The notes below the pieces were generated by a model. The model saw only the letters and a program-made list of their open reading frames with translations. It searched no databases and was not told where the DNA came from. Both the position numbers and the translations under genes were made by a program. From the IMG/VR virus record IMGVR_UViG_2541047882_000009, positions 1 to 10,504 of that record: a stretch of 10,504 nt of DNA; one strand, given 5' to 3'. Position 1 is the stretch's first letter; every line of letters starts with the position of its first letter. Source of the stretch: a virus (Duplodnaviria > Heunggongvirae > Uroviricota > Caudoviricetes). Positions 1 through 10,504 of the stretch are shown here, one piece after another.

Positions 1-580
1 TTAATTTATTGAATTTAAACGATAAATATCGCCACAAATAACGTTAAAAATCGCAAATTGACTACACCATTAACTACACCGTTCGGTGCACTGTATGCAA
101 CAACGTGGAACAAATAGACACAAGCGATATACAGGAAGGGACGATTTTTCTATGCAGATTTGCATAGTTCTAAATGAAGCTGGTGGATGATCACGGATAA
201 CCCGTTATGGGGATCACCATATCGACATCACGCCCACCAGCGAGATTAGTTACCTGGTTGCTGATGGGGGGCTGACGAACCTCGATGTCAGGATGCACAA
301 AACTAGTGAGACCTTTTTTCTCTGCAACAGGCCCATAATTCGCGTTTTCTTTGTCTGCCGTAAGGTGGGGGATTTTGGGCGGATCCAGCAATGGCGCGGA
401 TTTTGTTATTTTTTATAGATAGACCTCACCTATCAATCACATGCACATCTTCCCAAAAAAAGTTTTCGAACTTGCGGCGATGTGAACAAGGGTAGGCGGG
501 CGGTCCCATAAGCAATGGGGCGTAGGGATTTCGATCCCCCCGGGGGTATTAAACACCCCCCTATTTAAATACCGTCTTTT

Positions 581-630
581 TTGTCACTGTGTGTCACTGG
601 TTGTCACTCTCCGTCACGGTATGTCACCAT
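581..630. repeat. Five tandem 10-bp direct repeats with GTCAC core (tTGTCACTnn)
   Basis: Seen in sequence: ttgtcactgt, gtgtcactgg, ttgtcactct, ccgtcacggt, atgtcaccat, contiguous at exact 10-bp phasing. One additional TTGTCACTCA copy lies at 1181-1190. Confidence 0.7.
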
Positions 631-633
631 AAG

Positions 634-918
634 TTAACGTCGTAACCGCTCCGGCTTCTTCCAGTGGTAAGTAATTTTTTCTTTCTCCTGGTACATCTGC
701 ACGCGGCGACGGTATGACAACATCTCCAGAACTCTGGTGCGTATATTGCGCATATCCACGCCGTTAAGCTCAATACCGTCACGGCGCATCACCTCAGCCA
801 CCACACGCGCGTAATTTTCGGCTATCACGCTGTCCGGCTGCGTGGCCTCCTGTTTGCCTGCTGCCTGGTTGGCTCCGGTAACGCGGCGAATCATTTTGAG
901 CATTTCGGCTTCGGTCAT
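634..918 (-). CDS. Hypothetical protein, 94 aa (six-frame ORF extends to 948)
   Basis: Seen in sequence: the preferred start is the ATG at 918, with a GGAGG SD 8 nt upstream; the earlier in-frame ATGs at 948 and 924 have no or poorly spaced SDs. No family recognised. An array of GTCAC repeats lies immediately 3-prime. Confidence 0.5.
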   Translation of the reverse strand: MTEAEMLKMIRRVTGANQAAGKQEATQPDSVIAENYARVVAEVMRRDGIELNGVDMRNIRTRVLEMLSYRRRVQMYQEKEKITYHWKKPERLRR

Positions 919-962
919 TGTCATGGCCTCCGTGATGATGGGAAACAATGCCGTAATTGTGG

Positions 963-1165
963 CGGGTCCTTCCTGGAAAATGAAACACCGGGGGTAGCCA
1001 TACGCGCAATTCTTAACTGTTTATGAAAATTTTTCGGGAAAAGTCAGATCCGTTCTTCTTCTCTGTAACTCATTGTTTAATGGTAAAATCATCAAAAAAA
1101 GAAAGGATCTGACAGTGGTCATTTTGGGCCAAAAATGACGTTATCAGATCCTTTCTCAGTTTTGT
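963..1165 (+). other. Second lambda-type cos region in inverted orientation, with different R-site motifs and no cognate terS downstream on its strand
   Basis: Seen in sequence: the plus-strand reading has TACGCGCAATTCTTAACTGTTTATGAAAATTTTTC (1001-1035, identical to the inverted copy at 1914-1948), then CAGATCCGTTCTTCTTC (lambda R3 GGCGTTTCCGTTCTTCTTCG), an AT-rich IHF-like segment, GAAAGGATCTGACAG (lambda R2 GAAAGGAAACGACAG) and TATCAGATCCTTTCTC (lambda R1 CTGTCGTTTCCTTTCTC). The R2/R1 dyad (1101-1112 and 1145-1156) with flanking A and T runs could also act as the terS terminator. Confidence 0.55.
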
Positions 1166-1183
1166 TCAATAATTGCGCGGTTG

Positions 1184-1768
1184 TCACTCACCTTTCTGTT
1201 GCCGTAATTTCTCCGGCACGTTTCCGGTTGTTTCCATCAGGTAGTCTTTCAGAATGCGGGGCAGGTTATCGGCAGTTTTAGCGCACGCATTACAGGCGCG
1301 TGCTGTTTCTTTCCTCAGGCCCTCGATCATTGCCGGAGTCATCGCGGGGAACTGCCTTTGCATTGTGAGCGGTAAACTATCCATGATCGAAGAAATCTGG
1401 CGCGCCAGACCACGAAGCGCATAGAGAACGAACTCAGTATCTGTAACTTCCCCCGCCTCTCTGGCGTTCTTCAGTTCCTGCCCGTCCGCCTGTGCTTTGG
1501 TGAGACGGTAGCGTTCGTACTCTGTTGTGCCTGGCTGTAAATCTGATTCACCAGCAGCACGTAAATCATCAAGCTCCCTGCGGAGTTTTTCGTTTTCGAT
1601 GTCCTTCTCCCTCTGTGCATACCATTCGATCACCTGTGCAGAGTCGAAAGTCACTTCCACACCTTTACCCCCACCAGATACATGGGGAAGCCCTTGCGTT
1701 TGCCATCGTTCAATCGTGCGCGGATCGACGCCAAAAATCTTCGCAAGATTATTTTTATTAACATTCAT
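1184..1768 (-). CDS. terS: Terminase small subunit, lambda Nu1 family, 194 aa
   Basis: Seen in sequence compared with recalled lambda Nu1: [103 protein letters not shown] aligns almost colinearly with [109 protein letters not shown] SD 10 nt upstream. The recognition-helix region differs from lambda. Confidence 0.9.
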   Translation of the reverse strand: [194 protein letters not shown]

Positions 1769-1985
1769 CTATCAATTCCTTATCAAAAACCAGTTCCGAC
1801 ATGAAACGCCAAAAAAACAGGATTTTTGGGCTTTATGATGTCGTATGTTTCTGGTGGTTGATTTTAATAAAAACAAACAGTTATGCGCGAGAAGTACCGA
1901 CATGCTTTTTCCTGAAAAATTTTCATAAACAGTTAAGAATTGCGCGTACACGTACCCCCCGTGTTTCAGATTCTGGAAAGGACCC
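1769..1985 (-). other. Lambda-type cos region (cosN-proximal segment plus cosB with R3-I1-R2-R1 layout) immediately upstream of terS
   Basis: Seen in sequence compared with the recalled lambda left end: the minus-strand reading contains CTGTTTATGAAAATTTTTCAGG (lambda CTATTTATGAAAATTTTCCGG), then CATAACTGTTTGTTTTTATTAAAATCAACC (lambda CATAACTTAATGTTTTTATTTAAAATACC, the IHF I1 region), flanked by three repeats: CATGTCGGTAC (about 1891-1905), inverted ATGTCGTATG (about 1836-1848) and CATGTCGGAAC (about 1790-1804). These occupy the positions of lambda R3, R2 (inverted) and R1, and the terS ATG follows as Nu1 does in lambda. The exact nick positions cannot be assigned. Confidence 0.6.
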
Positions 1986-2011
1986 GTGAAAATTGGGGTG
2001 ATCACCACCGT

Positions 2012-2042
2012 TCCGGACACAAAAAAATCGCGAGGCCTTGCC
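2012..2042 (-). terminator. Rho-independent terminator ending the head operon
   Basis: Seen in sequence: stem CGCGAGG / CCTCGCG (2020-2026 and 2036-2042) with a 9-nt loop; on the minus strand it is followed by a T run (complement of the A run at 2012-2018). It sits about 25 nt after the 141-aa gene stop. Confidence 0.55.
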
Positions 2043-2065
2043 AACCTCGCGAACGTTCATTTCAG

Positions 2066-2491
2066 TTACTTAACAGACAGCAACAGCTTTTCATCTTCGG
2101 TCAGTCCGGCGTTACCATCACCGGCTGCTGGCCCAACACATTTCGGGCTGTGCTTTTCCATGTACGCATCAAACAAAAAAGCCGTTTTCTTTTCCTGCAT
2201 CATTGCCTGGGCATCCACGGCAGCCAGTAACGTTTGTGCATAGGTTACTGTCATTACTTCAGAACCACACTCAATCAGCTTACTGGTGAATTCAGGGTAT
2301 TTTGATGCCAGCGGTAACGCCTTGATACCCTCTATGCGCTGTTTATCACTCTCAGCCTTTGCAGTAAGTACCGTTCGGGCTTCTGTCAGTGATGCGCCAT
2401 TATTTGCGAGATTTTCCGCAAGCGTCGGGTATTTCTGCGCCTCAGGCAGTGCCATGATCAATGCTCTGGTTGAATTTGCTTTCTCAGTCAT
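2066..2491 (-). CDS. Hypothetical protein, 141 aa, with an internal duplicated motif; last gene of the head operon
   Basis: Seen in sequence: GGTGA SD 4 nt upstream and a 14-nt gap after the gpD-like stop. An internal repeat is present: ALPEAQKYPTLAENL and ALPLASKYPEFTSKL. No family recognised; no convincing similarity to lambda FI, FII or W. Confidence 0.55.
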   Translation of the reverse strand: MTEKANSTRALIMALPEAQKYPTLAENLANNGASLTEARTVLTAKAESDKQRIEGIKALPLASKYPEFTSKLIECGSEVMTVTYAQTLLAAVDAQAMMQEKKTAFLFDAYMEKHSPKCVGPAAGDGNAGLTEDEKLLLSVK

Positions 2492-2505
2492 AAATCACCA
2501 CAAAA

Positions 2506-2835
2506 TTATTGCCCTAAAGGCTGCACGGAAATACCGGAACCAACAAAAGCCGACACTTTTTTCTCGAACGTGTCCGCTGTATCAGGCCAGTTAATTTCAT
2601 CGATATTAAAAACCCCGCACTTATAAACCTGTGCGCGGTTTTTTGTGGCCGTGTTAATGTCCGATATGGTCAGATACACCGCCTTACCGGGTGTACCGTC
2701 CCACTCAACCATCAGGCCCGCGCCGTTCTGCATCAGCGGAGTTCTCGCTTTAATTTCTCCGGCACTGGCAAAACAGGCCAGCGTGCTGACCAGTTCCTGC
2801 GTGCCGGAAAGGAATTGCGTGTAAGGTGTTGGCAT
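2506..2835 (-). CDS. Head decoration protein, lambda gpD family, 109 aa
   Basis: Seen in sequence compared with the recalled lambda gpD sequence: TPLM, WDGT, YKCGVF (lambda YKSGTF), WPD/WPE and AFVGSGISV (AFAGTAISIV), at the same length (109 versus 110 aa). It lies immediately downstream of the capsid gene with a good SD. Confidence 0.8.
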   Translation of the reverse strand: MPTPYTQFLSGTQELVSTLACFASAGEIKARTPLMQNGAGLMVEWDGTPGKAVYLTISDINTATKNRAQVYKCGVFNIDEINWPDTADTFEKKVSAFVGSGISVQPLGQ

Positions 2836-2845
2836 ACGATCCCCT

Positions 2846-3901
2846 TTATTTCACTTCGACGGTAACAAAGCGACCAATATCCACGGGTACTGGCTGCGGG
2901 GCGCTGTGCGTCTGCACGTATTCAATCGCCGGATCGCCAGGTACGATATAATTTTTCGGGTAGTACATCCCCTCAGAAAACCCCTCGCGTGCCGCGTCCT
3001 GATCCATGATGGCACCATAAGCAACAAGGCCTTTATTTTCGGTATTGCCGAAAACCATCATGTTTTGTTTCAGGAAATATTGCTGCTGCCCGCATTCGTC
3101 GTCATAACGACCGGAATAAACCACGAGCGCCACATCACCGAGATACCCCTTGAAGCTGACAACGCCGCCCAAATCTTTTAGCGCAAGTTCAAGTGACGAG
3201 TTTGAACCGCGACGCGTGTCCAGGAGTTCGCGGAATCGACGGAACGAGCGCAAAATACGCCAGGCTTCGCCACCCATGACGATAATATTTACCGTACCTT
3301 TGGAAAAATCAGCGTAAGCCTCAATGTCGCTTATCGGATCAAACGTCTCGGCATCCTGTTTTGACCATTCTTTCCCGCCAGCCTGTGTAATGTGATTGGT
3401 TGCGGGTAATCCCCAGTCAATTTCATAACGCTCAATGCCTTCGCCTTCGATAACGTTACGGCCTGTTGTGATGGCATTGACCGCCAGCCATTCAACACGC
3501 GCTTTGATGGCAGCAAGCTGTTTTTTCTGGCTGTCGTGAACCATTTTTACGCGGCGTAGTGCCGGGGAAGACTGACCATTGCCGATCTGTTCTCCAGCCA
3601 TGCGCATGATTGTTTTAGTGGGATCAATAACGTGTTTGGGCTTCATATAACCCGGCGTGAAAGTGTTCGTTGTAAAACCTTTGTCACGCATAACCTGACT
3701 GCCTGACATTGGTGAACAAAACGGACTCATGACCACGTTTTCAATATCCAGCGTATCAAGCGCAATATCTCGCGTACTGAACGTGGCGATATTCGGAAAA
3801 AACAGCGTCGTAAAGAGCGGATTAAATTTAAATTCCGGCACATCTTCTCGCCCGATATTTTTCAGTAGCGTTGGTGTGCTTACCAGTTGTGGCGCTGTCA
3901 T
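2846..3901 (-). CDS. Major capsid protein, lambda gpE family, 351 aa
   Basis: Seen in sequence compared with the recalled lambda gpE sequence: shared blocks FKFNPLF, FTPGYMKPKH (lambda FTPGYVKPKH), ITQAGGKEWSK (ITQSGGTEWSK), DPISDIEAYA (DPTDDIEAYA), VNIIV, DTRRGSNSSLE (DTRRGSNSELE), KGYLGDVALVVYSGRY (KGMYGDVAIVVYSGQY), YPKN, GDPA and SAP, at near-identical length (351 versus 341 aa). Confidence 0.9.
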   Translation of the reverse strand: MTAPQLVSTPTLLKNIGREDVPEFKFNPLFTTLFFPNIATFSTRDIALDTLDIENVVMSPFCSPMSGSQVMRDKGFTTNTFTPGYMKPKHVIDPTKTIMRMAGEQIGNGQSSPALRRVKMVHDSQKKQLAAIKARVEWLAVNAITTGRNVIEGEGIERYEIDWGLPATNHITQAGGKEWSKQDAETFDPISDIEAYADFSKGTVNIIVMGGEAWRILRSFRRFRELLDTRRGSNSSLELALKDLGGVVSFKGYLGDVALVVYSGRYDDECGQQQYFLKQNMMVFGNTENKGLVAYGAIMDQDAAREGFSEGMYYPKNYIVPGDPAIEYVQTHSAPQPVPVDIGRFVTVEVK

Positions 3902-4107
3902 TACTCACCCCCATGAGGCTGATTCATACCAAGCGCAGCGCGTAAATGGCTGCGTACCATCCAGCCGACTGACGGCTTCACCAGGCACAACGGATCAAGG
4001 CCGATTTTTTTTCCTGCCTCTGCGTTCTCCTCAAAGCGCGCATTAAGTGCGGCGATAATATCGGGGCTGATGTACACGGATACACCGCCCGGCTTCTGTG
4101 TTCCCAT
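3901..4107 (-). CDS. Hypothetical small protein, 68 aa, first gene of the head operon
   Basis: Seen in sequence: strong SD (AAGAGGAA) 9 nt upstream; the stop overlaps the capsid gene start (TAATG). No family recognised. Confidence 0.55.
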   Translation of the reverse strand: MGTQKPGGVSVYISPDIIAALNARFEENAEAGKKIGLDPLCLVKPSVGWMVRSHLRAALGMNQPHGGE

Positions 4108-4157
4108 AAATGAGATTCCTCTTTGACTAAAAAAATAAACATAACGAAAAGTCAGTC

Positions 4158-4223
4158 ATGATTTTAATCATCATTGCATTTTTTGCAATGCGATTGACTG
4201 TTGTTGCAAATCATGAAATGATT
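4158..4223 (-). promoter_or_regulatory. Candidate head-operon promoter overlapped by palindromic operator-like sites
   Basis: Seen in sequence: minus-strand sigma70-like promoter with -35 TTGCAA (4183-4188), 16-bp spacer and -10 TAAAAT (complement of 4161-4166). The palindrome ATGATT-TT-AATCAT (4158-4171) covers the -10 and CATTGCA-TTTTT-TGCAATG (4172-4190) covers the -35. A third palindrome AATCAT-GAA-ATGATT (4209-4223) shares the ATGATT half-site. Confidence 0.4.
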
Positions 4224-4284
4224 ATGCCGTGGTTTTAATCCTTGTACCACAGAGTCATTCAGCATTAATCACGTTAGCGGCGTG

Positions 4285-4320
4285 AAATCCCCCGGAACCT
4301 CATCCCGGGGGATTTTTTTT
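4285..4320 (+). terminator. Rho-independent terminator, plus-strand orientation, with no annotated plus-strand gene upstream
   Basis: Seen in sequence: perfect 11-bp stem AAATCCCCCGG / CCGGGGGATTT (4285-4295 and 4305-4315) with a 9-nt loop, followed by a T run to 4320. Confidence 0.55.
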
Positions 4321-4326
4321 ACGCAC

Positions 4327-4352
4327 AAAAAAGCCGGGAAAAATCCCGGCTT
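4327..4352 (-). terminator. Rho-independent terminator ending the replication/ssb operon
   Basis: Seen in sequence: stem AAGCCGGGA / TCCCGGCTT (about 4331-4339 and 4344-4352) with an AAAA loop; on the minus strand it is followed by a T run (complement of the A run at 4325-4332). It sits 15 nt after the ssb stop. Confidence 0.6.
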
Positions 4353-4366
4353 CTGTCACTCGTTGC

Positions 4367-4789
4367 TTAAAACGGTATGTTATCCCCGTACGGATCATCA
4401 TTTCCCGCCTGTTGTTTTGCCCTGTTCAGTGCGTCAGTAGCCTGGCCCTGCTGGCCTTTTTTGCCGCCCGGTCGCGCCGTCCGCGCACTGATTACGCTGT
4501 CTGCGATAACCTGCCAGCCCTGCCGCGTTTCGCCGTTCTGGCCTGTCCACTGGCTTACCTGCATGTTACCCGCCACGCTCACCAGTTCGCCTTTGTGGTG
4601 CTTTGCCAGTGCGTCGGCCTGTCTGCCAAACGCCATGACGGATAACCACATCGTCGCCGTTCCGTCATCTGCCTGGCTGCACGGCAGGGGAACCGCCATA
4701 CTCGCCATCGCCATTTGTGTCCCCTTGCTGGTGGTCTTTAACTGCGGGTCAGCCACCAGCCGCCCGTAAGCCGCTATCTGTGCTGTCAT
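4367..4789 (-). CDS. ssb: Single-stranded DNA-binding protein (short SSB), 140 aa
   Basis: Seen in sequence: OB-fold-like N-terminus (IAAYGRLVADPQLKTTSKG..., WLSVMAFGRQADALAKHHKGELVSVAGNMQVSQWTGQNGETRQ), a Gly/Gln-rich linker and an acidic tail ending DDPYGDNIPF. Established knowledge: this parallels E. coli SSB, including the C-terminal D-D-D-I-P-F protein-interaction tail. Confidence 0.85.
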   Translation of the reverse strand: MTAQIAAYGRLVADPQLKTTSKGTQMAMASMAVPLPCSQADDGTATMWLSVMAFGRQADALAKHHKGELVSVAGNMQVSQWTGQNGETRQGWQVIADSVISARTARPGGKKGQQGQATDALNRAKQQAGNDDPYGDNIPF

Positions 4790-5037
4790 GCTGTCTGTTC
4801 TCCGGTTTTAACGTTGATGGTTGTCACCTGTTCCGCTTCGGCAATCTCCCGCTCTGTCAGCGTGGCAAAGTTTGCCGCCGCCGTGGTCATGAATGCGCTT
4901 ATCAGTTCGGGATGTGCTTTCGCGTATCCTTCTCCGGCATGGCGGTCTATCGTTCTGATTGCCACCTTTAAGGCGTGCTCTGTCATGTCTAATGCGCGAT
5001 ATTTTGGTGCTGTCTTATCTCTGGTTTTTCTGGTCAT
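4786..5037 (-). CDS. Hypothetical protein, 83 aa (the six-frame ORF extends to 5169 but the upstream part is made of iterons)
   Basis: Seen in sequence: the internal Met at 5037 has an AGGTGG SD 4 nt upstream, and the 5-prime extension of the ORF overlaps the iteron array, so the shorter start is preferred. The stop overlaps the ssb start (ATGA). No family recognised. Confidence 0.5.
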   Translation of the reverse strand: MTRKTRDKTAPKYRALDMTEHALKVAIRTIDRHAGEGYAKAHPELISAFMTTAAANFATLTEREIAEAEQVTTINVKTGEQTA

Positions 5038-5040
5038 GCG

Positions 5041-5249
5041 CCCACCTGTGCCCACTTTTTCTACCCACTTTTCATGGTTTCCCACTTCGTCCCACCTGGG
5101 ATTTTGTGGTTTTATATCGTACTGTTTCATAAGAGTTTTTTTAGTGCCCACTTTTTGGGATGTATACACGTGGGAAAGTGGGCGATTTTGTTAAATTCCA
5201 GTTAAATTACCCACTATTCCCACTTTTAACGCCCACTTTTTACAGTGGG
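5041..5249. repeat. Iteron array, about 9 direct and 3 inverted copies of CCCACTTTT-like motif; candidate replication origin
   Basis: Seen in sequence: CCCAC(C/T)T copies starting at about 5041, 5051, 5064, 5081, 5091, 5147, 5210, 5219 and 5232, and inverted GTGGG copies at about 5170, 5178 and 5245. Inference: placement directly downstream of the rep gene stop matches the usual ori position in PICI/SaPI-type elements. Confidence 0.6.
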
Positions 5250-6646
5250 TGAACATCATCCCCATCGACGCAAATCACGCCGTCTTTTTCCAGTTTGGCT
5301 AACCATCGTTTAAGGTGTTTTGTGTCATATCCCAGCTTTTTCATGTCATCACGTAGCAGCGGGATCGTACATTTATCACCATGCTGTATACGCGACCGGA
5401 TACAACCCCATAAAGCCGTGTGATTTTCCGTCTTGTTCCCGGCCTCCTCTATGCGCTCCAGTTCAGCAGGGGCGCGGGGAACGTCAATCACCACCATGGA
5501 CACAATCTCTTCGCCATCTGTATCGGTGAACACCTCCACGCTTTTAAGATCGTATGCACTCTCTTTTGGCTCCTCTGCGTCCTTCATCTTCGTACACGCC
5601 GCCACCAGTGCTGTAACCTCTGAATTTTCCCGGCTGATTCGGTACTCTGCATCAAGCGCGGCACGGAATGCGCTGGAACCGCGCGCCCCCTTTGTTTCAT
5701 CCTTGCCGGAATGGTGAACCACCAGCACCGTGGCCCCTGTGGCCTGCTTTATCGCGTCACACCCCTGGATAAATGCGCCCATATCGCGGGAATCATTTTC
5801 ATCATTCCCACCAAAGCAACGGGCCAGCGTGTCGATCACAATCAGCCGCACATTTTCGCCCGTTCTGCTCTTAACAAGTCCGGCAGTCCTGATAACCTGC
5901 TCCACATAGTCAGGCGATGCGGGGAAGACAGGCGCGTTAACGATGCACAAATCTGTAACCACCTTGTCATGGGTTATCTCCCACGCCTTAACGCGGCGTT
6001 TTACGCCCATACTGCCTTCGCCAGCGATATAGATAACAGCGCCCTTACTTACCCTGCGGCCTCCCCATGCCATACCTGTGGCAACATGGCACGACCAGGA
6101 AATAGCCAGGAACGATTTATAAGAACCGCTGGCCCCGTAGGTGCTGCATAATGACTCAGCCGGAATAAGCCCCTTAATTACGTAGCTTTGCTGCGCGTCG
6201 AATCCCTCAGAACCCCATGAGATGGGAAGTGTGATTTTTCGCTTTCCACCATTCATGACCAGACTTTCCCCGCGTTCCCAGGTTTCTTTAAGCCGCGGTA
6301 GTTGCTCGCTCCAGTCCTCCAGCAGTTCGAAATTCTCTGAAAGTAACCGTGCTTCCTGGACACCTGCGATCGCCAGTTTGGTGGCAATGGTCAGCATCTG
6401 CATATCGTCCAGGTTTCCGGCGCGTATGACCTTTGCTCTGTATCGTCCTTCATCAACAATCTGTAAATTGTCCAGTTCGCTTAACTGATAACGGCCCAGG
6501 TAAACCGGAGGGATGGGATCGCCTGCTTTTTTGGCCTGTGCAATCATGTAATGTTCTGCAAAGGAGTGAGCATTATCACCCGCAAAAATAACCGCCTCAG
6601 TGTGTTTATCTTTCGGTAACAGTTTTACGTTCGGTGCCAGTTTCAT
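5240..6646 (-). CDS. Replication initiator/helicase-type ATPase, RepA-like (AAA_25 RecA-fold core), 468 aa, with a C-terminal winged-helix-like tail
   Basis: Seen in sequence: Walker A-like GASGSYKS, Walker B-like RLIVIDTL followed by VLVVHHSGKDETKG, in the arrangement LIPAESLCSTYGASGSYKSFLAISW...AVIYIAGEGS typical of AAA_25/RepA-like proteins. Established knowledge: such proteins act as replication initiators or helicases in PICIs, plasmids and integrative elements. The N-terminal 150 aa is unassigned and has no obvious primase motifs. An iteron array lies immediately 3-prime. Confidence 0.8.
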   Translation of the reverse strand: MKLAPNVKLLPKDKHTEAVIFAGDNAHSFAEHYMIAQAKKAGDPIPPVYLGRYQLSELDNLQIVDEGRYRAKVIRAGNLDDMQMLTIATKLAIAGVQEARLLSENFELLEDWSEQLPRLKETWERGESLVMNGGKRKITLPISWGSEGFDAQQSYVIKGLIPAESLCSTYGASGSYKSFLAISWSCHVATGMAWGGRRVSKGAVIYIAGEGSMGVKRRVKAWEITHDKVVTDLCIVNAPVFPASPDYVEQVIRTAGLVKSRTGENVRLIVIDTLARCFGGNDENDSRDMGAFIQGCDAIKQATGATVLVVHHSGKDETKGARGSSAFRAALDAEYRISRENSEVTALVAACTKMKDAEEPKESAYDLKSVEVFTDTDGEEIVSMVVIDVPRAPAELERIEEAGNKTENHTALWGCIRSRIQHGDKCTIPLLRDDMKKLGYDTKHLKRWLAKLEKDGVICVDGDDVHPL

Positions 6647-6942
6647 TTTTTACCTCTGGATGCGCTGAGCATGCTTTTTATTTTCTTAATATTTTCCCGT
6701 GCTTTTTCCCTGCTGGTGGGCTTACCGCGTGTTACGTTCTGTACCAGAGAAAAATCACGCCGGAACTGATAAACAGGCATCACGCAGTCATAGCCGTACC
6801 CATCACGGCGGTAAGTAACACACCGTCCCGCCACGCTTTTAATCGTTACAGTGCCGCCGTATTTATCTTTGAAAATATCGCCGGGGCGGATTTCAGGCCG
6901 AGCGGGGCCGCTGGCAGTAAAGCCAGAAATTTTCTGTTTCAT
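6643..6942 (-). CDS. Hypothetical basic protein, 99 aa (possibly DUF4222-like)
   Basis: Seen in sequence: ORF whose stop overlaps the rep start (ATGA). The motif GDIFKDKYGGTVTIKSVAGRCVTYRRDGYGYDCVMPVYQFRRDF is reminiscent of small prophage proteins found upstream of primase/rep genes; this is a recollection with low certainty. Confidence 0.5.
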   Translation of the reverse strand: MKQKISGFTASGPARPEIRPGDIFKDKYGGTVTIKSVAGRCVTYRRDGYGYDCVMPVYQFRRDFSLVQNVTRGKPTSREKARENIKKIKSMLSASRGKK

Positions 6943-6947
6943 GGTTT

Positions 6948-7181
6948 TTATTTCCCGGTGTGTTGTTCTTTATATCTGTCGTGCAAAAGGTCTATTTCTT
7001 GTAGTTCCATTATTACCGGCTCAAGAAGCGTTATTAACGCCGTCGCAATATTGCTGTTGCGTTTATTTCTTTCATTATCGCCAAGCGTTTCAAGCCATAA
7101 GCGCAATATTTCAAGCATGTTTTCACTGTAAGCAAGAGCACGGTATGCACGGTCTACTGTGTCATTGTAAATATCACACAT
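6948..7181 (-). CDS. Hypothetical helical protein, 77 aa
   Basis: Seen in sequence: start overlaps the stop of the 154-aa gene; the stop lies 5 nt before the next start. No family recognised. Confidence 0.5.
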   Translation of the reverse strand: MCDIYNDTVDRAYRALAYSENMLEILRLWLETLGDNERNKRNSNIATALITLLEPVIMELQEIDLLHDRYKEQHTGK

Positions 7182-7638
7182 GGCTTACATCCTCCGGGAA
7201 TTTTCTTCTGTAACGCGCCTCTGCCACATATTCCGCATAGTCCGACGCAATATTGAGAATATCGCTACCCGTTCCTGAATGTTTGGCGGTTTCCAGCAAA
7301 AAACATGCAGCTTTTACCATGTCAGCAACACATAACAGCGCAATATCTGTATCTTCCGGTGCGCCATCAAATTCCTGTTTCAGGGCATTAAAACGATCAT
7401 CACGCATAACCCCCCCATTTTCACAATCAGCAATCAGGATGGCTTTAGCCTCATTCAGTGCCATATCAGCGGTAAGCTGTGCGTAGGCCAGCGAATGGGG
7501 GATTATTTCCCCTGTATATTCCGTCTCTCTGGTAATGTGTTTTTCTGCGGTTGCTGCCGTGCATGAAATATCAATCAGCGCGTGCATCAGCGTTTTGATG
7601 GCTTCGGCGGCTGCGTCCGGACGGGTGTTATTGCACAT
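7174..7638 (-). CDS. Hypothetical acidic protein, 154 aa
   Basis: Seen in sequence: ORF with start overlapping the upstream stop and stop overlapping the downstream start, so it is translationally coupled within the operon. No family recognised. Confidence 0.6.
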   Translation of the reverse strand: MCNNTRPDAAAEAIKTLMHALIDISCTAATAEKHITRETEYTGEIIPHSLAYAQLTADMALNEAKAILIADCENGGVMRDDRFNALKQEFDGAPEDTDIALLCVADMVKAACFLLETAKHSGTGSDILNIASDYAEYVAEARYRRKFPEDVSHV

Positions 7639-7834
7639 GGCGCACCCCCTGACGAATACGGGCGGCGAATACCATCACACAGCCAGCCGGGGATTGCTGG
7701 CGTGCTTCCTGTTCGCTGGTGGCCTCAATGGTAATCACACGCGGTTGTGCCGTGCTCAGGGCGATAAAACGCCAGATGTATTTATTCAGGTTGTGCGAGT
7801 CCCGCCCTTGCGGGTGTGTGGTATGATTTCTCAT
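7628..7834 (-). CDS. Small protein, 68 aa, resembling Icd/Ash-like proteins of P4-like elements
   Basis: Seen in sequence: ATG at 7834 preceded by a GAGGT SD; the stop overlaps the start of the next gene (ATGTGCAATAA). It forms the in-frame C-terminal part of the spurious long ORF 7628..8680. Recalled, not searched: the motif ...RFIALSTAQPRVITIEATSEQEARQQSPAGCVMVFAARIRQ resembles Icd-like host cell division inhibitor family proteins. Confidence 0.5.
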   Translation of the reverse strand: MRNHTTHPQGRDSHNLNKYIWRFIALSTAQPRVITIEATSEQEARQQSPAGCVMVFAARIRQGVRHVQ

Positions 7835-8030
7835 AGCTACCTCGATACGCTTTCTATCGTTGGTGGTTAGACGCCCTGCATGTGTGCCACCACTGCGGGG
7901 CGTTGCTGTATATACACCACAATTATTGGTGTGCATACAGATTAAATTTAAGTGTGCTACAGTGTCAAGTGTTTTATTAACACACCTTTTGGTGTAATGT
8001 GTACACACCTCAAAATAACCGGACATCCTA
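7835..8030. promoter_or_regulatory. Divergent promoter/operator region between the small-regulator gene and the replication operon
   Basis: Seen in sequence: AT-rich gap containing several ACACC/GGTGT inverted repeats (ACACC-N9-GGTGT near 7914-7932, ACACC-TTTT-GGTGT near 7982-7995, GTGTACAC near 7999-8006). A minus-strand sigma70-like promoter is present: -35 TTGACA (complement of 7963-7968), 16-bp spacer, -10 TTTAAT (complement of 7941-7946). A leader hairpin lies near 7872-7900. Confidence 0.5.
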
Positions 8031-8330
8031 ATGGCAACAGGAAACATCAACAGCAGATCGCAAATGAAAAATATCCGCTTCCCCCATGATGTAATCGAGG
8101 AAATGGAAAATTCGAAAACGGAAGGGGAAACAATAGCCGCTTTCGTGATTACAGCTGTTCGCGGGGAGATCGCCCGCCGCCAAGCTGAAGGAAGCGGAGA
8201 AAATCCCCTGGTTTCTTCGCTCGATGCACTGGCGCAGGTGGAAAAAATTGGAGTCAAAGCTGCCGAGGAGATCGGGCAACTCGTCGCCGTCGCGCGTGAA
8301 GAACTCCAGCGCCGCAAGGCCAAAGAATAG
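8031..8330 (+). CDS. Small DNA-binding protein, ribbon-helix-helix-like; candidate repressor of the divergent replication operon
   Basis: Seen in sequence: 99-aa ORF and the only convincing plus-strand gene, divergent from the minus-strand operon. Inference: the N-terminal segment KNIRFPHDVIEEMENSKTEGETIAAFVITAVRGEIARR fits a beta-strand then two helices as in Arc/MetJ/CopG folds. The SD is weak (GGA only) and the true start could be the internal Met at codon 12. Confidence 0.5.
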   Translation: MATGNINSRSQMKNIRFPHDVIEEMENSKTEGETIAAFVITAVRGEIARRQAEGSGENPLVSSLDALAQVEKIGVKAAEEIGQLVAVAREELQRRKAKE

Positions 8331-8437
8331 GAATAGCCCACCAGCAAGCCAGCACACTGATCACATTGCCCACCAGCCGCAAATGTGGCATTGTTGGCTA
8401 TGCTCATGCGTTGGGGATAACGTGTAGCTTGTGTCGA

Positions 8438-8468
8438 GGGGCCACCGTAGCGGGTGGCCTTTGTTTTG
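8438..8468 (+). terminator. Rho-independent terminator downstream of the plus-strand regulator gene
   Basis: Seen in sequence: stem GGCCACC / GGTGGCC (8440-8446 and 8453-8459) with loop GTAGCG, followed by TTGTTTT. Confidence 0.55.
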
Positions 8469-8563
8469 CCTGTTATCCTGCAACTATGGTCATTTCGACC
8501 ACGGTTGATATAACCCCCCTGCACTGATCCAATTTTTTCGCAGCAGGTTAATTGTTCAGAAAG

Positions 8564-8591
8564 GCGGCTCCATTTCGGGGCCGCTTTTTTT
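8564..8591 (+). terminator. Second plus-strand rho-independent terminator
   Basis: Seen in sequence: stem GCGGCTCC / GGGGCCGC (one G-U pair) with loop ATTTC, followed by a run of seven T. Confidence 0.55.
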
Positions 8592-8732
8592 ATGCCTGAA
8601 AAACCACAATTTTGTTGTTTTCCAGTCTCACCAGGACGAGCGAAGCCCCGCCCCTGTTCGGGCGTATATCCAGTCTTCATGGTTAAATCTCTGTATTAGT
8701 GGATGGGAGGCGGCTGTGTGCCGCCAGCCTGA

Positions 8733-8936
8733 TTAGTGAACTGCCTCGCGGCTGTCCTTCCATGCCAGAACTTCGGATAAAGACCAGCCAACGGAACGAC
8801 CGCCGAGTTTACGCCGTGATGGGAATTGTCCGGTTTTTTCCAGGCGGTACCGACATGAGCGGCTCAGGCCTGTAAGTTGCTGACATTCTTTTTCACGTAT
8901 AAAGCGATCAGTGCTTAACACTATTGCCTCCGTCAT
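8733..8936 (-). CDS. alpA: AlpA-family (excisionase-like, MerR-type HTH) DNA-binding regulator, 67 aa
   Basis: Seen in sequence: 67-aa ORF downstream of int on the same strand. Established knowledge: the size and the motif ...QQLTGLSRSCRYRLEKTGQFPSRRKLGGRSVGWSLSEVLAWK... are typical of AlpA/Vis-like regulators of P4-like prophages and Gram-negative PICIs. An int then alpA order is the canonical layout. Confidence 0.8.
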   Translation of the reverse strand: MTEAIVLSTDRFIREKECQQLTGLSRSCRYRLEKTGQFPSRRKLGGRSVGWSLSEVLAWKDSREAVH

Positions 8937-9189
8937 TTCTCAAAGAGTCATTTGGTGTCTTATTGTGTCGTATTGTTCCCGCTGGAGTGATGAATGGCAA
9001 ATATTGGTGACGGCCATTTTACAGAAATGGGGTAATTAGAATAAAAATACTTTTAAATCATTGTGATAAAGTAGCGTAAAATTCTGTTTTTACGTCTTTT
9101 TTACATGTTTTTAAGAGTGATTCGCCAGTGTATAAAAAAACAGTATGCATATAAAAATCAAATGTTTATGGCGCTGTTTGATTTTTAAT

Positions 9190-9257
9190 CCGTTTGTTCC
9201 AGATTGTTCGCCGTTGTTCGTCGTGGTGTCTCGTTGTTTCACGTTGTGTCCGTTCTG
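9190..9257. repeat. Six to seven tandem 10-bp direct repeats (nCGTTGTKTC) downstream of int and upstream of the alpA promoter
   Basis: Seen in sequence: ccgtttgttc, cagattgttcg, ccgttgttcg, tcgtggtgtc, tcgttgtttc, acgttgtgtc at 10-bp phasing. A related trio (TTGGTGTC, TTGTGTCG, TTGTTCC) at 10-bp phasing lies at about 8944-8973, directly upstream of the alpA start. Confidence 0.65.
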
Positions 9258-9274
9258 AAAAATCGCGAAAAAAA

Positions 9275-10504
9275 TTATATTTCTCTGGCTATTGGCAGTG
9301 TGGTTACGTTTTCGTGAGCACCTGCCAGTATCTCTAATCGCTCTGTCCACATATCCAGCGCGTTACGTTTCGCATCAATATAGCGGGAGTGGTTATAGAC
9401 TCGTTGCATCCCTGGCATCTGGTGGGCGGTAAGTTGCTCGACAATATGCGGATCCACGCCTAAATCGTTCAGCATCGTGGTAAACGTGCGCCGTATATCG
9501 TGCAGGGACCAGTGAGGATGGTTTAATTTTTTGTGCGTAAATCTGCCGTATTGTGACACGCTGGCTTCCTGTTTCAGTTCTCCGAGTAATAACCCTGTGT
9601 GCCTGTTCTGCTCCACCAGCTGCGTGACGAACGGCAAAATGCTTTCCGGTATTGGCCTGAATATGGCGACCTTCGTTTTGCTGTGTTCTTTCGGTACCGT
9701 CCAGAGCATTTCCTTAAAATCCCACTCCCTGATCTCCGACAGCCTCAGTTCTCCGGTCCGGCAGCCGAACACAATCAGGAGGCGGATTAGTGCGCTGTAG
9801 TAGGGCGGGAATATTTTTTTATCCAGCGCCTGTAATAATTCGCCCAGTTCTTTGTTACTAAGCACGCGTTCGCTTATGCCCGGCTTTTTGCCAACGTCCA
9901 GCACGTTGAGATCATCCAGAACGTTACTGACTGCGTAGCGACGTTTACGGCAGAACTTAAGCGCCTGTTTGCACGCCTGCATCATGTGGCCAGATGTTAC
10001 GGGTGATTTTTTGCGTATCCGGTCAAAACAGGCCAGCCAGTGACGCAACTCGCATTTATCCAGCGGCATATTGCCAATATGCTGTATGACGTGATTATTC
10101 AGGCGGCTTTTCAGGGAGACGTAATCGACACGGTTTTCCTTTACGTGCATTTCCAGCCAGTAGCTGATCGCATCGCCTACCGTTACCGGCTTTAGTGCTT
10201 CCTGTATGGAGTAATTAAGCTCATGGCGTGGATTTTTTCCCTCTGCCAGCCATGCGCGACACTGTGCTGCTTTTTCCCTGGCTGCTTTCAGGCTCAGATC
10301 CGGATAATTTCCCAGCTTCAGGCGTTCCGGTGATACCTGGCGTCCTGTTCCTGCCCTGTAGGTGAAATACCAGGTTAACAGACCGCTGGTGGAGTGTCTG
10401 ATACTCAGATTTCCACCGTCATTAAGAAAGGTGGTTTTTTGGGCTGGTGTGCCGTTGATTTTTCTTAGCTGCGTGTCGCTCAGTTTGTTAAGTGCCCTGC
10501 TCAT
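9275..10504 (-). CDS. int: Tyrosine site-specific integrase, P4-type, 409 aa
   Basis: Seen in sequence: 409-aa ORF whose ATG is the last three bases of the window. Established knowledge: the N-terminal arm-binding-like segment (LSDTQLRK...FLNDGGNLSIR...WYFTYR...LKLGNYPDLSLKAAREKA) and the C-terminal catalytic region with HxxR and a terminal Tyr context (HDIRRTF...HQMPGMQRVYNHSRY) match the P4 integrase family layout. The promoter and any att site or tRNA would lie beyond the window. Confidence 0.9.
   Translation of the reverse strand: MSRALNKLSDTQLRKINGTPAQKTTFLNDGGNLSIRHSTSGLLTWYFTYRAGTGRQVSPERLKLGNYPDLSLKAAREKAAQCRAWLAEGKNPRHELNYSIQEALKPVTVGDAISYWLEMHVKENRVDYVSLKSRLNNHVIQHIGNMPLDKCELRHWLACFDRIRKKSPVTSGHMMQACKQALKFCRKRRYAVSNVLDDLNVLDVGKKPGISERVLSNKELGELLQALDKKIFPPYYSALIRLLIVFGCRTGELRLSEIREWDFKEMLWTVPKEHSKTKVAIFRPIPESILPFVTQLVEQNRHTGLLLGELKQEASVSQYGRFTHKKLNHPHWSLHDIRRTFTTMLNDLGVDPHIVEQLTAHQMPGMQRVYNHSRYIDAKRNALDMWTERLEILAGAHENVTTLPIAREI

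Follow-up and report, generated by a model that had tools for sequence, protein, structure and literature searches.

The locus described here raises the question of how a phage satellite that encodes a complete small terminase subunit (TerS) next to a cos site of its own has its DNA packaged. It lies in the IMG/VR virus record IMGVR_UViG_2541047882_000009, of which positions 1 to 10,504 were analysed (this whole stretch is called the window). The element is an island of ~10 kb from Escherichia coli and belongs to the EcCICFT073 family of phage-inducible chromosomal islands (PICIs), with int, alpA, a replication module, homologues of gpE and gpD, and two cos sites. The only packaging mechanism worked out for cos-type PICIs of Gram-negative bacteria is that of the Rpp proteins, which borrow the TerS of the helper phage; packaging of EcCICFT073 depends on Rpp and helper TerS (PMC6739421, PMC9026076). 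The family of the island described here has a second solution, in which the slot is occupied by a complete TerS instead of an Rpp protein. We consider it probable (roughly 0.6) that this protein is a working satellite TerS of phage 21 specificity, which would bind its own cosB together with integration host factor (IHF) and recruit the large terminase subunit (TerL) of the helper to cosN, the second cos site serving other helpers.

The terS gene and its product

Between positions 1184 and 1985 there is a single long open reading frame (ORF), located on the minus strand (1768 down to 1184), which encodes 194 amino acids. It is preceded by a ribosome-binding site, AAGGA, located 9 nt 5' of the ATG. 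The product matched the Pfam family PF07471 (Phage_Nu1) with E=4e-68 and 228.6 bits (cut-off 30) over profile positions 1-162 of 164. The sequence-only reading of this DNA, made before the present analysis, had described the protein as colinear with lambda Nu1, and the alignment with Nu1 was indeed gapless, with 52% identity over 180 amino acids (E=6e-72); identity to gp1 of phage 21 was 60% (E=1e-80). The N-terminus matched the solved domains 6HN7_B (1.5e-38; residues 1-98 of lambda TerS, chain B of the RppC-TerS entry), 1J9I (5.3e-23) and 7LWR, the DNA-binding domain of phage 21 TerS (1.6e-19). Judged by these matches, the winged helix-turn-helix (HTH) domain at the N-terminus is homologous to the solved Nu1/gp1 domains, and because of its identity to them the fold can be regarded as settled.

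No large-terminase gene overlaps or follows terS, and there is no terL anywhere in the window; terS is followed by an inverted cos site and then by an ORF of 104 amino acids. TerL must therefore be provided in trans.

Lambda Nu1 was also encountered, with the same 52% identity to the island TerS, on short contigs assigned to Kitasatospora, Paenibacillus, Bradyrhizobium, Oceanobacillus and others. On contigs of such unrelated genomes it looks like contamination with lambda control DNA.

The cos site upstream of terS

Upstream of terS, positions 1769-1985 of the minus strand form a full cos site of the lambda-like kind, and the gene lies directly downstream of cosQ-cosN-cosB (R3-I1-R2-R1). The elements of this module are the following.

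1979-1985, minus strand: cosQ, GGGTCCT
1942-1960, minus strand: cosN, non-canonical, GGGGGGT-ACGTGT-ACGCGC (GGGGC-GGCGAC-CTCGCG in lambda and 21)
1914-1929, minus strand: I2-like element, TTTATGAAAATTTTTC, common to all lambda-like cos sites compared
1892-1907, minus strand: R3 box of the 21 type, AAGCATGTCGGTACTT, with the core CATGTCGGTAC at 1894-1904
1871-1883, plus strand: I1 between R3 and R2, IHF-consensus match AAACAAACAGTTA with 1 mismatch, of the sequence type and at the position of phage 21 I1
1835-1850, plus strand: R2 box, inverted relative to R3 and R1, with the core ATGTCGT (ATGTCGG with one change) at 1838-1844
1791-1806, minus strand: R1 box of the 21 type, TTTCATGTCGGAACTG, with the core CATGTCGGAAC at 1793-1803
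1770-1782, plus strand: IHF-consensus match TATCAATTCCTTA with 0 mismatches between R1 and the start codon, at the position of phage 21 I0
1184-1768, minus strand: terS, encoding the 194-aa TerS of the Nu1 family (ORF, Pfam match and alignment)

Position 1985, where the sequence-only reading had ended the locus, is the first base of cosQ. The ATGTCGG-type repeats that it had reported next to terS are real, R3 and R1 being exact and R2 both inverted and altered in one base. By number alone they would not stand out: the 7-mer ATGTCGG occurred three times in the window (1.22 expected; 30 of 200 shuffles reached 3), which is not above chance, and the same applies to the count of the IHF consensus. 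The R boxes are significant because of their position and conservation. Counted from the start codon, they lie at -137, -76 (inverted) and -36, the very offsets found in lambda and phage 21. In other elements the boxes were accordingly read at fixed offsets from the start codon; a strict pattern of exact 7-mers in direct-inverted-direct order missed most of them. From the spacing of the cosN elements, the end generated at this right cos site is predicted to be a 12-nt 5' overhang, GGTACGTGTACG.

The R3 core CATGTCGGTAC has a further exact copy, the third, inside the alpA coding sequence (8847-8857, minus strand), which may be due to chance.

Helix and R boxes of the phage 21 class

The recognition helix of the island TerS is unlike that of lambda (IRTIQNWQE), as had been noticed from the sequence alone; both peptides quoted at that time, residues 13-30 of the island TerS and the corresponding lambda segment, were exact, and lambda boxes are CGTTTCC, as stated. 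The proposal that the cosB beside terS bears a matching R-box motif different from that of lambda was also borne out. The motif had been called distinct, but it is in fact of the phage 21 type: helix and R3 are near-identical to those of phage 21, for which the structure 7LWR was already available. At the DNA level, window positions 1463-1939, a segment consisting of the cos site and roughly the first 100 codons of terS, matched phage 21 and relatives in the phage collection at ~73% identity. Only residue 24 distinguishes the helix of the island (T) from that of phage 21 (S), lambda having E at this position; at residue 20, island and phage 21 share an E. Work from the Feiss laboratory traced the discrimination between lambda and 21 to residues 20 and 24, and packaging of either phage's DNA by the other is reduced more than 1000-fold (PMC4669245). 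On the DNA side, 21 and lambda are told apart by bp 56 of R3, a GC-versus-TA pair (PMC4669245).

In GenBank, the phage 21 record carries annotations for cosN, I2, R3, I1, R2, R1 and I0, and the cos region of the island aligned to each of these in colinear order. R3 is AAGCATGTCGGTACTTCTCG in the island and AATCGTGTCGGTACTTCTCG in phage 21; R1 is TTTCATGTCGGAAC and TTTCATGTCGGGCC, respectively. The two elements share the (C/A)TGTCGG core, the order R3-I1-R2 (inverted)-R1-I0 and the distances of the boxes from the start codon. The cosN does not conform: instead of the canonical GGGCGGCGACCT of lambda and 21, both island cos sites have GGGGGT-N6-ACGCGC. The island also differs from phage 21 in the wing of TerS, which is lambda-like (SGGGKG versus SKGSKG in 21), in the absence of terL after terS, and in being a satellite, not a phage. 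With lambda gpNu1 and its cosB it shares the protein family, the colinearity and the architecture of the cos site; helix and boxes are different.

The sequence-only reading had suggested looking for covariation between helix and R boxes in related elements. About 30 elements (related islands, phages, and prophages of other genera) were compared. Their helices fell into four classes, each paired with its own class of R box, and the boxes lay at constant positions.

Helix IRTIQNWQ[ED]QGMP, box core CGTTTCC-like: lambda and four other enterobacterial taxa
Helix PRTIERWQ[STM]QGL, box core [AG]TGTCGG: phage 21, an Stx2e prophage and all islands with this helix
Third helix class, box core ATGTC[AG]: PhiR5_1
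Helix VRTITGWQSQGLR, box core [CG]AGATCC: E41 prophage

The repeats were conserved in relatives of the island, so that the refutation named in the sequence-only reading, a lack of conservation of the ATGTCGG repeats in related elements, did not apply. Boxes of the 21 type were kept in 14 of 14 islands with this helix, namely the window island, seven E. coli islands from complete genomes and six IMG/VR proviruses (89-100% TerS identity, adding new islands). One of the seven complete-genome islands, RM10466, has weaker boxes. The 21-type boxes were lacking where RppA, or a TerS with a different DNA-binding domain, occupied the slot. As far as the sequences tell, the TerS/cosB pair of the island belongs to the classical phage 21 class, which has been known for decades, and is not a new specificity.

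A chimeric TerS with a satellite-specific C-terminal half

The recognition pair is thus ordinary, that of phage 21, and the unusual part of TerS is its C-terminal half. This segment had previously been described as moderately conserved; it proved to be the most diverged part of the protein and PICI-specific. Identities to the island TerS over residues 1-55, 56-100 and 101-194 were as follows.

Phage 21: 67%, 89% and 30%
Lambda: 60%, 76% and 29%
Stx2e prophage: 71%, 87% and 31%
PhiR5_1: 78%, 84% and 48%
Nissle 1917 PICI: 27%, 31% and 70%

The C-terminal 94 residues of the island protein are also 12-13 amino acids longer than those of phage 21 gp1. The TerS proteins of the Nissle 1917 and AVS0542 PICIs are 69-70% identical to the island TerS over residues 101-194 and only 25-27% identical at the N-terminus. 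They consist of 180 amino acids, and their N-terminal domain is unrelated, being of a type also found in Kosakonia and Shewanella. The three proteins end in the common tail ETTG[ND]VPEKL[LR]Q[KQ]KGE. The C-terminal module (69-70%) with its tail, the slot and the double-cos plan are common to the island and the other E. coli PICIs with a TerS (Nissle 1917, AVS0542 and RM10466). In Nissle 1917 and AVS0542 the different N-terminus goes together with an upstream cosB that has GGTGGTGG repeats, not ATGTCGG boxes.

DNA similarity to phage 21 ends at about codon 102, and the joint can be placed at residues ~91-102, in a conserved AQELKNAR stretch. A lambda-21 laboratory hybrid splits DNA binding from TerL binding where this joint lies (PMC9026076), and the natural chimeras thus mark the boundary between DNA recognition and presumed TerL binding where the classical hybrids do. 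An exhaustive HMMER search with residues 100-194 against 1.84 billion representatives gave 91 matches, of which 3-4 clusters exceeded 60% identity; the remaining matches stopped at about query position 80, short of the tail. All named proteins carrying the module were from E. coli. (A search of an index of 5.8 billion proteins with the 95-aa C-terminal fragment, which had returned only partial E. coli proteins, was superseded by this one.) These comparisons identify TerS as a natural chimera in which ~100 N-terminal residues of apparent phage origin (21/PhiR5_1-like), comprising the winged-HTH DNA-binding domain and a linker helix, are joined to a satellite-specific module of 94 residues.

In phages the C-terminal type of TerS covaried with the first ~50 residues of TerL, and three types could be distinguished (lambda, 21 and PhiR5_1). 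This agrees with the assignment of the C-terminal half as the TerL-binding module (PMC9026076), an assignment that for the island protein would hold by analogy.

Two other ideas about these proteins were discarded. The C-terminal tail might have been an in-frame fossil of the start region of terL, but it resembled the terS-terL junctions of lambda, 21, PhiR5_1 and the Stx2e phage at neither the DNA nor the protein level. The Nissle-type N-terminus showed no BLASTP similarity to Rpp. Repeats GGTGGTGGTGG in the upstream cosB of Nissle 1917 and AVS0542 resemble a CCACCACCAC run in cos1 of EcCICFT073.

The second cos site and the cos-terS-cos cassette

Beyond the 3' end of terS lies a second cos site, inverted relative to the first.

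955-1180, plus strand: second (left) cos site
964-970, plus strand: cosQ
988-1007, plus strand: cosN-like element, CCGGGGGT-AGCCAT-ACGCGC
1044-1051, 1105-1112 (inverted) and 1144-1151: R boxes TCAGATCC
1066-1078: IHF-like site

The two arms of a 124-nt inverted repeat (955-1078 and 1871-1994, 77% complementary) lie on either side of terS. The motif TCAGATCC matched four times in the window (0.18 expected). The left cosB matches those of the E41 and SerU-LTIIb prophages, whose TerS has the helix CDVRTITGWQSQGLR, and does not match the island's own TerS. All relatives had the same double-cos plan with a variable far cosB, which is of the TCAGATCC type in the lineage of the island, of the 21 type in Nissle and of the ATGTCCGG type in CFT073.

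In the shared cosN frame GGGGGT-N6-ACGCGC the central hexamer is ACGTGT in the right and AGCCAT in the left cos site, and it varies among close relatives as well. The RM10740 Stx2e prophage (centre CATAGC) and E41/SerU (CTGGGG) have a cosN with this frame as well. The TerL proteins of RM10740 and E41/SerU are 99% identical to each other; their N-terminal TerS-binding region is 21-like, and their C-terminal half is 58-84% identical to the TerL of 21 and of phage 4, which we take to be the icd prophage of CFT073. We infer that a distinct TerL nuclease may read this type of cosN.

The cosQ-to-cosQ module (961-1992) was present in only 24 of 5426 complete E. coli genomes, and other parts of the island matched ~1986 of them; the terS form is therefore rare. 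The cassette recurred at 91-93% identity in another island backbone, characterised by a DUF927 primase, ProQ, PerC and DUF1441, and was seen in both orientations relative to neighbouring genes. This pattern suggests that the cassette could be exchanged or inverted via the inverted cos repeats. The DUF1441 protein beside the cassette in some islands was considered as a possible RppC, but it did not match 6HLK.

A wider idea, which we put forward only tentatively, is that these islands possess swappable cos-terS-cos cassettes, in which the satellite C-terminal module is mounted on interchangeable cosB-matched domains, the second cos mimics another class of helper, and the inverted repeats make the cassette mobile and possibly let it invert. 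If this were true, one island could be packaged by helpers of several specificities and could compete with helper TerS for TerL, and Rpp would be a truncated end-point of the same evolutionary line.

Maintenance of terS and candidate helpers

Relative to homologues diverged by 6-10%, the ratio of nonsynonymous to synonymous substitution rates (dN/dS) of terS was 0.12-0.19 in both halves of the gene, indicating purifying selection.

The best lead for a helper is an Stx2e prophage of the RM10740 type. From cosQ through I1 the right cos site is near-identical to the cos site of this prophage except for the centre of cosN, the segment from I2 through R3 being identical, and the TerS of the prophage has the same type of recognition helix. 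Of the 24 genomes carrying the module, six (cq9, U90, HNSQ2209, STEC313, A36 and CFIAFB20180511) also have an RM10740-type cos-terS at 98.6% identity or more, compared with ~50 of the 5426 genomes overall, an association that clonal relatedness of the pig and ruminant isolates may inflate. Since the likely helpers carry the same 21-type boxes, the boxes cannot tell the island from such helpers. The suggestion in the sequence-only reading that TerS redirects the helper's large terminase to the cos site of the element must be qualified in this light: it is conceivable for helpers of other specificity and doubtful for 21-type helpers, which have the same boxes and the same type of cosN.

Packaging by island TerS and its alternatives

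In the mechanism that we favour, a lambda-like helper would first induce the island and replicate it. Dimers of TerS would bind R3 and the inverted R2 across the IHF bend at I1, and R1 would be bound too; this recognition step is well supported by the close match to phage 21, on analogy with which it is drawn. TerS would then use its C-terminal half to bring helper TerL to the adjacent cosN. TerL would nick cosN, and the DNA would presumably be translocated from cosB through terS and the rest of the island to the next cosQ-cosN on the concatemer. The left cos, with its TCAGATCC-class cosB, may let helper terminases of other specificity start packaging without island TerS.

Several observations weigh against a working TerS. 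The terS of A36 is frameshifted, that of SA53-3 has ACG in place of ATG, and in at least eight genomes the gene is deleted except for approximately the first 8 and the last 20 codons, both cos sites being intact. From the coexistence of such decay with purifying selection it follows that terS is useful, not indispensable. The PICI C-terminus is a poor fit to all three TerL-binding types of phages (identity to PhiR5_1 48%, to lambda and 21 29-31%), and it does not covary with the class of cosN; the candidate helpers with the unusual cosN have a TerL with a 21-type N-terminus, and the island C-terminus is more similar to the lambda/PhiR5_1 types. Helpers of the 21 type already recognise the boxes and would not need the island protein. 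Finally, terS was noted in the E. coli PICIs EcCIIHE3034 and EcCI18098 in a 2018 paper, in which these islands were tested and were not mobilised by the resident prophages (PMC6092414); a literature search found no later work on these two terS-encoding PICIs.

Part of this evidence would be explained if the real route were mimicry of helper cos sites, the right cos being used by helper TerS of the 21 type and the left one by TerS of the E41 type, with the island's terS accessory or decaying. The likeness of the right cos to that of the RM10740 Stx2e prophage, whose TerS shares the helix, the match of the left cosB to E41/SerU-LTIIb and the co-occurrence with Stx2e-type prophages all fit this explanation. 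So do the terS-deleted derivatives that retain both cos sites; in the one inspected (NZ_LR882057.1, 2440-3100) the right cosN has exactly the sequence found in the RM10740 prophage. Moreover, cloned cos sites of EcCICFT073 transfer plasmids without any island protein (PMC6092414). However, the low dN/dS indicates that selection maintains terS in most copies, the co-occurrence may reflect the relatedness of the isolates, and a passenger gene would not be expected to have a C-terminal module that is 70% conserved across islands with different DNA-binding domains. On balance we regard mimicry as the real route as rather unlikely, and keep to a TerS that works at its own cosB.

A role like that of Rpp must also be weighed. 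Via its conserved, dimerising DNA-binding domain and its central helices, the island protein could form mixed oligomers with helper TerS that poison or retarget helper packaging, TerL being contacted through helper TerS and not through the island C-terminus. The gene occupies the exact slot of rppA beside the equivalent of cos1, Rpp heterodimerises with helper TerS (PMC6739421), mixed assemblies are made plausible by the 84-89% identity of residues 56-100 to phage TerS, and the poor fit of the C-terminus to known TerL-binding types points the same way. Against this, TerS gave no BLASTP alignment with RppA and matched RppC only in the HTH (E=0.02). It retains the entire Nu1-homologous C-terminal half, whereas Rpps are proteins of 139-154 amino acids without the TerL-binding tail (PMC9026076). 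With a 21-type helper the specificity of a mixed complex would also be unchanged. We consider this role quite improbable, and still less credence is due to the idea that a degraded lambdoid prophage left the locus behind as an inert relic. The head genes are present only as fragments (E, D and Nu1) and terS is frameshifted or deleted in some relatives, as a remnant would be; but the gene order is that of EcCICFT073, which has been mobilised experimentally (PMC6092414), terS has an intact reading frame and a ribosome-binding site and evolves under purifying selection, and the cos-terS-cos cassette recurs in several island backbones.

Comparison with known satellites and implications

Among the closest known systems are the Rpp proteins (RppA, RppB and RppC) of EcCICFT073-type PICIs. 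EcCICFT073 is located beside phoQ in strain CFT073, has the gene order of the window island and two functional cos sites (PMC6092414), and carries rppA (144 aa) exactly in the terS slot. Both kinds of protein are encoded in the same family of islands, downstream of cos in a slot that an inverted pair of cos sites encloses; the winged-HTH N-terminus of each matches the cosB of its own island, and each is presumed to favour packaging of the island. They differ in that Rpps need helper TerS, whereas the island TerS is a full-length Nu1 homologue. A satellite-encoded TerS is in itself a known idea. In the pathogenicity islands of Staphylococcus aureus (SaPIs) a satellite small terminase pairs with helper TerL to package satellite DNA; there, however, packaging is by headful (pac) and TerS belongs to an unrelated family, in contrast to the cos-type island with its R boxes and IHF sites.

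The molecular basis on which TerS chooses its TerL remains unknown (PMC9026076). The PICI TerS chimeras are ready-made domain swaps for asking how a small terminase selects its large partner, and the two cos specificities, together with a cosN whose central hexamer is free to vary, bear on the range of helpers and on the strictness with which TerL reads cosN.

Other features of the island

All genes of the island but one are on the minus strand. No portal, protease, tail, lysis or tRNA gene was found in the window. The following features complete the map.

9275-10504, minus strand: integrase
8733-8936, minus strand: AlpA
8031-8330, plus strand: ORF of 99 amino acids between alpA and the replication genes
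5240-6646, minus strand: RepA/AAA_25 helicase
Minus strand: DUF4222 protein
Minus strand: single-stranded DNA-binding protein (SSB)
2846-3901, minus strand: gpE-like major capsid protein
2506-2835, minus strand: gpD-like decoration protein
Within the head-gene block 2066-3901, minus strand: ORF of 141 amino acids without family match
2028-2052, minus strand: terminator-like hairpin with a T run, separating the capsid-gene block from the cos-terS module
After terS, minus strand: the 104-aa ORF

The 99-aa ORF is the sole notable one on the plus strand. It had weak Pfam matches of the ribbon-helix-helix/antitoxin type (PSK_trans_fac, 0.0022), and its product may be a regulator of the island. The capsid and decoration homologues of EcCICFT073, c1499 and c1500, are dispensable for transfer and interference.

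Near the end of the island, just past the last ORF, five GTCAC-containing repeats with a spacing of 10 bp extend over positions 581-628: TTGTCACTGTGTGTCACTGGTTGTCACTCTCCGTCACGGTATGTCACC. They may be arm-type sites of the integrase or iterons.

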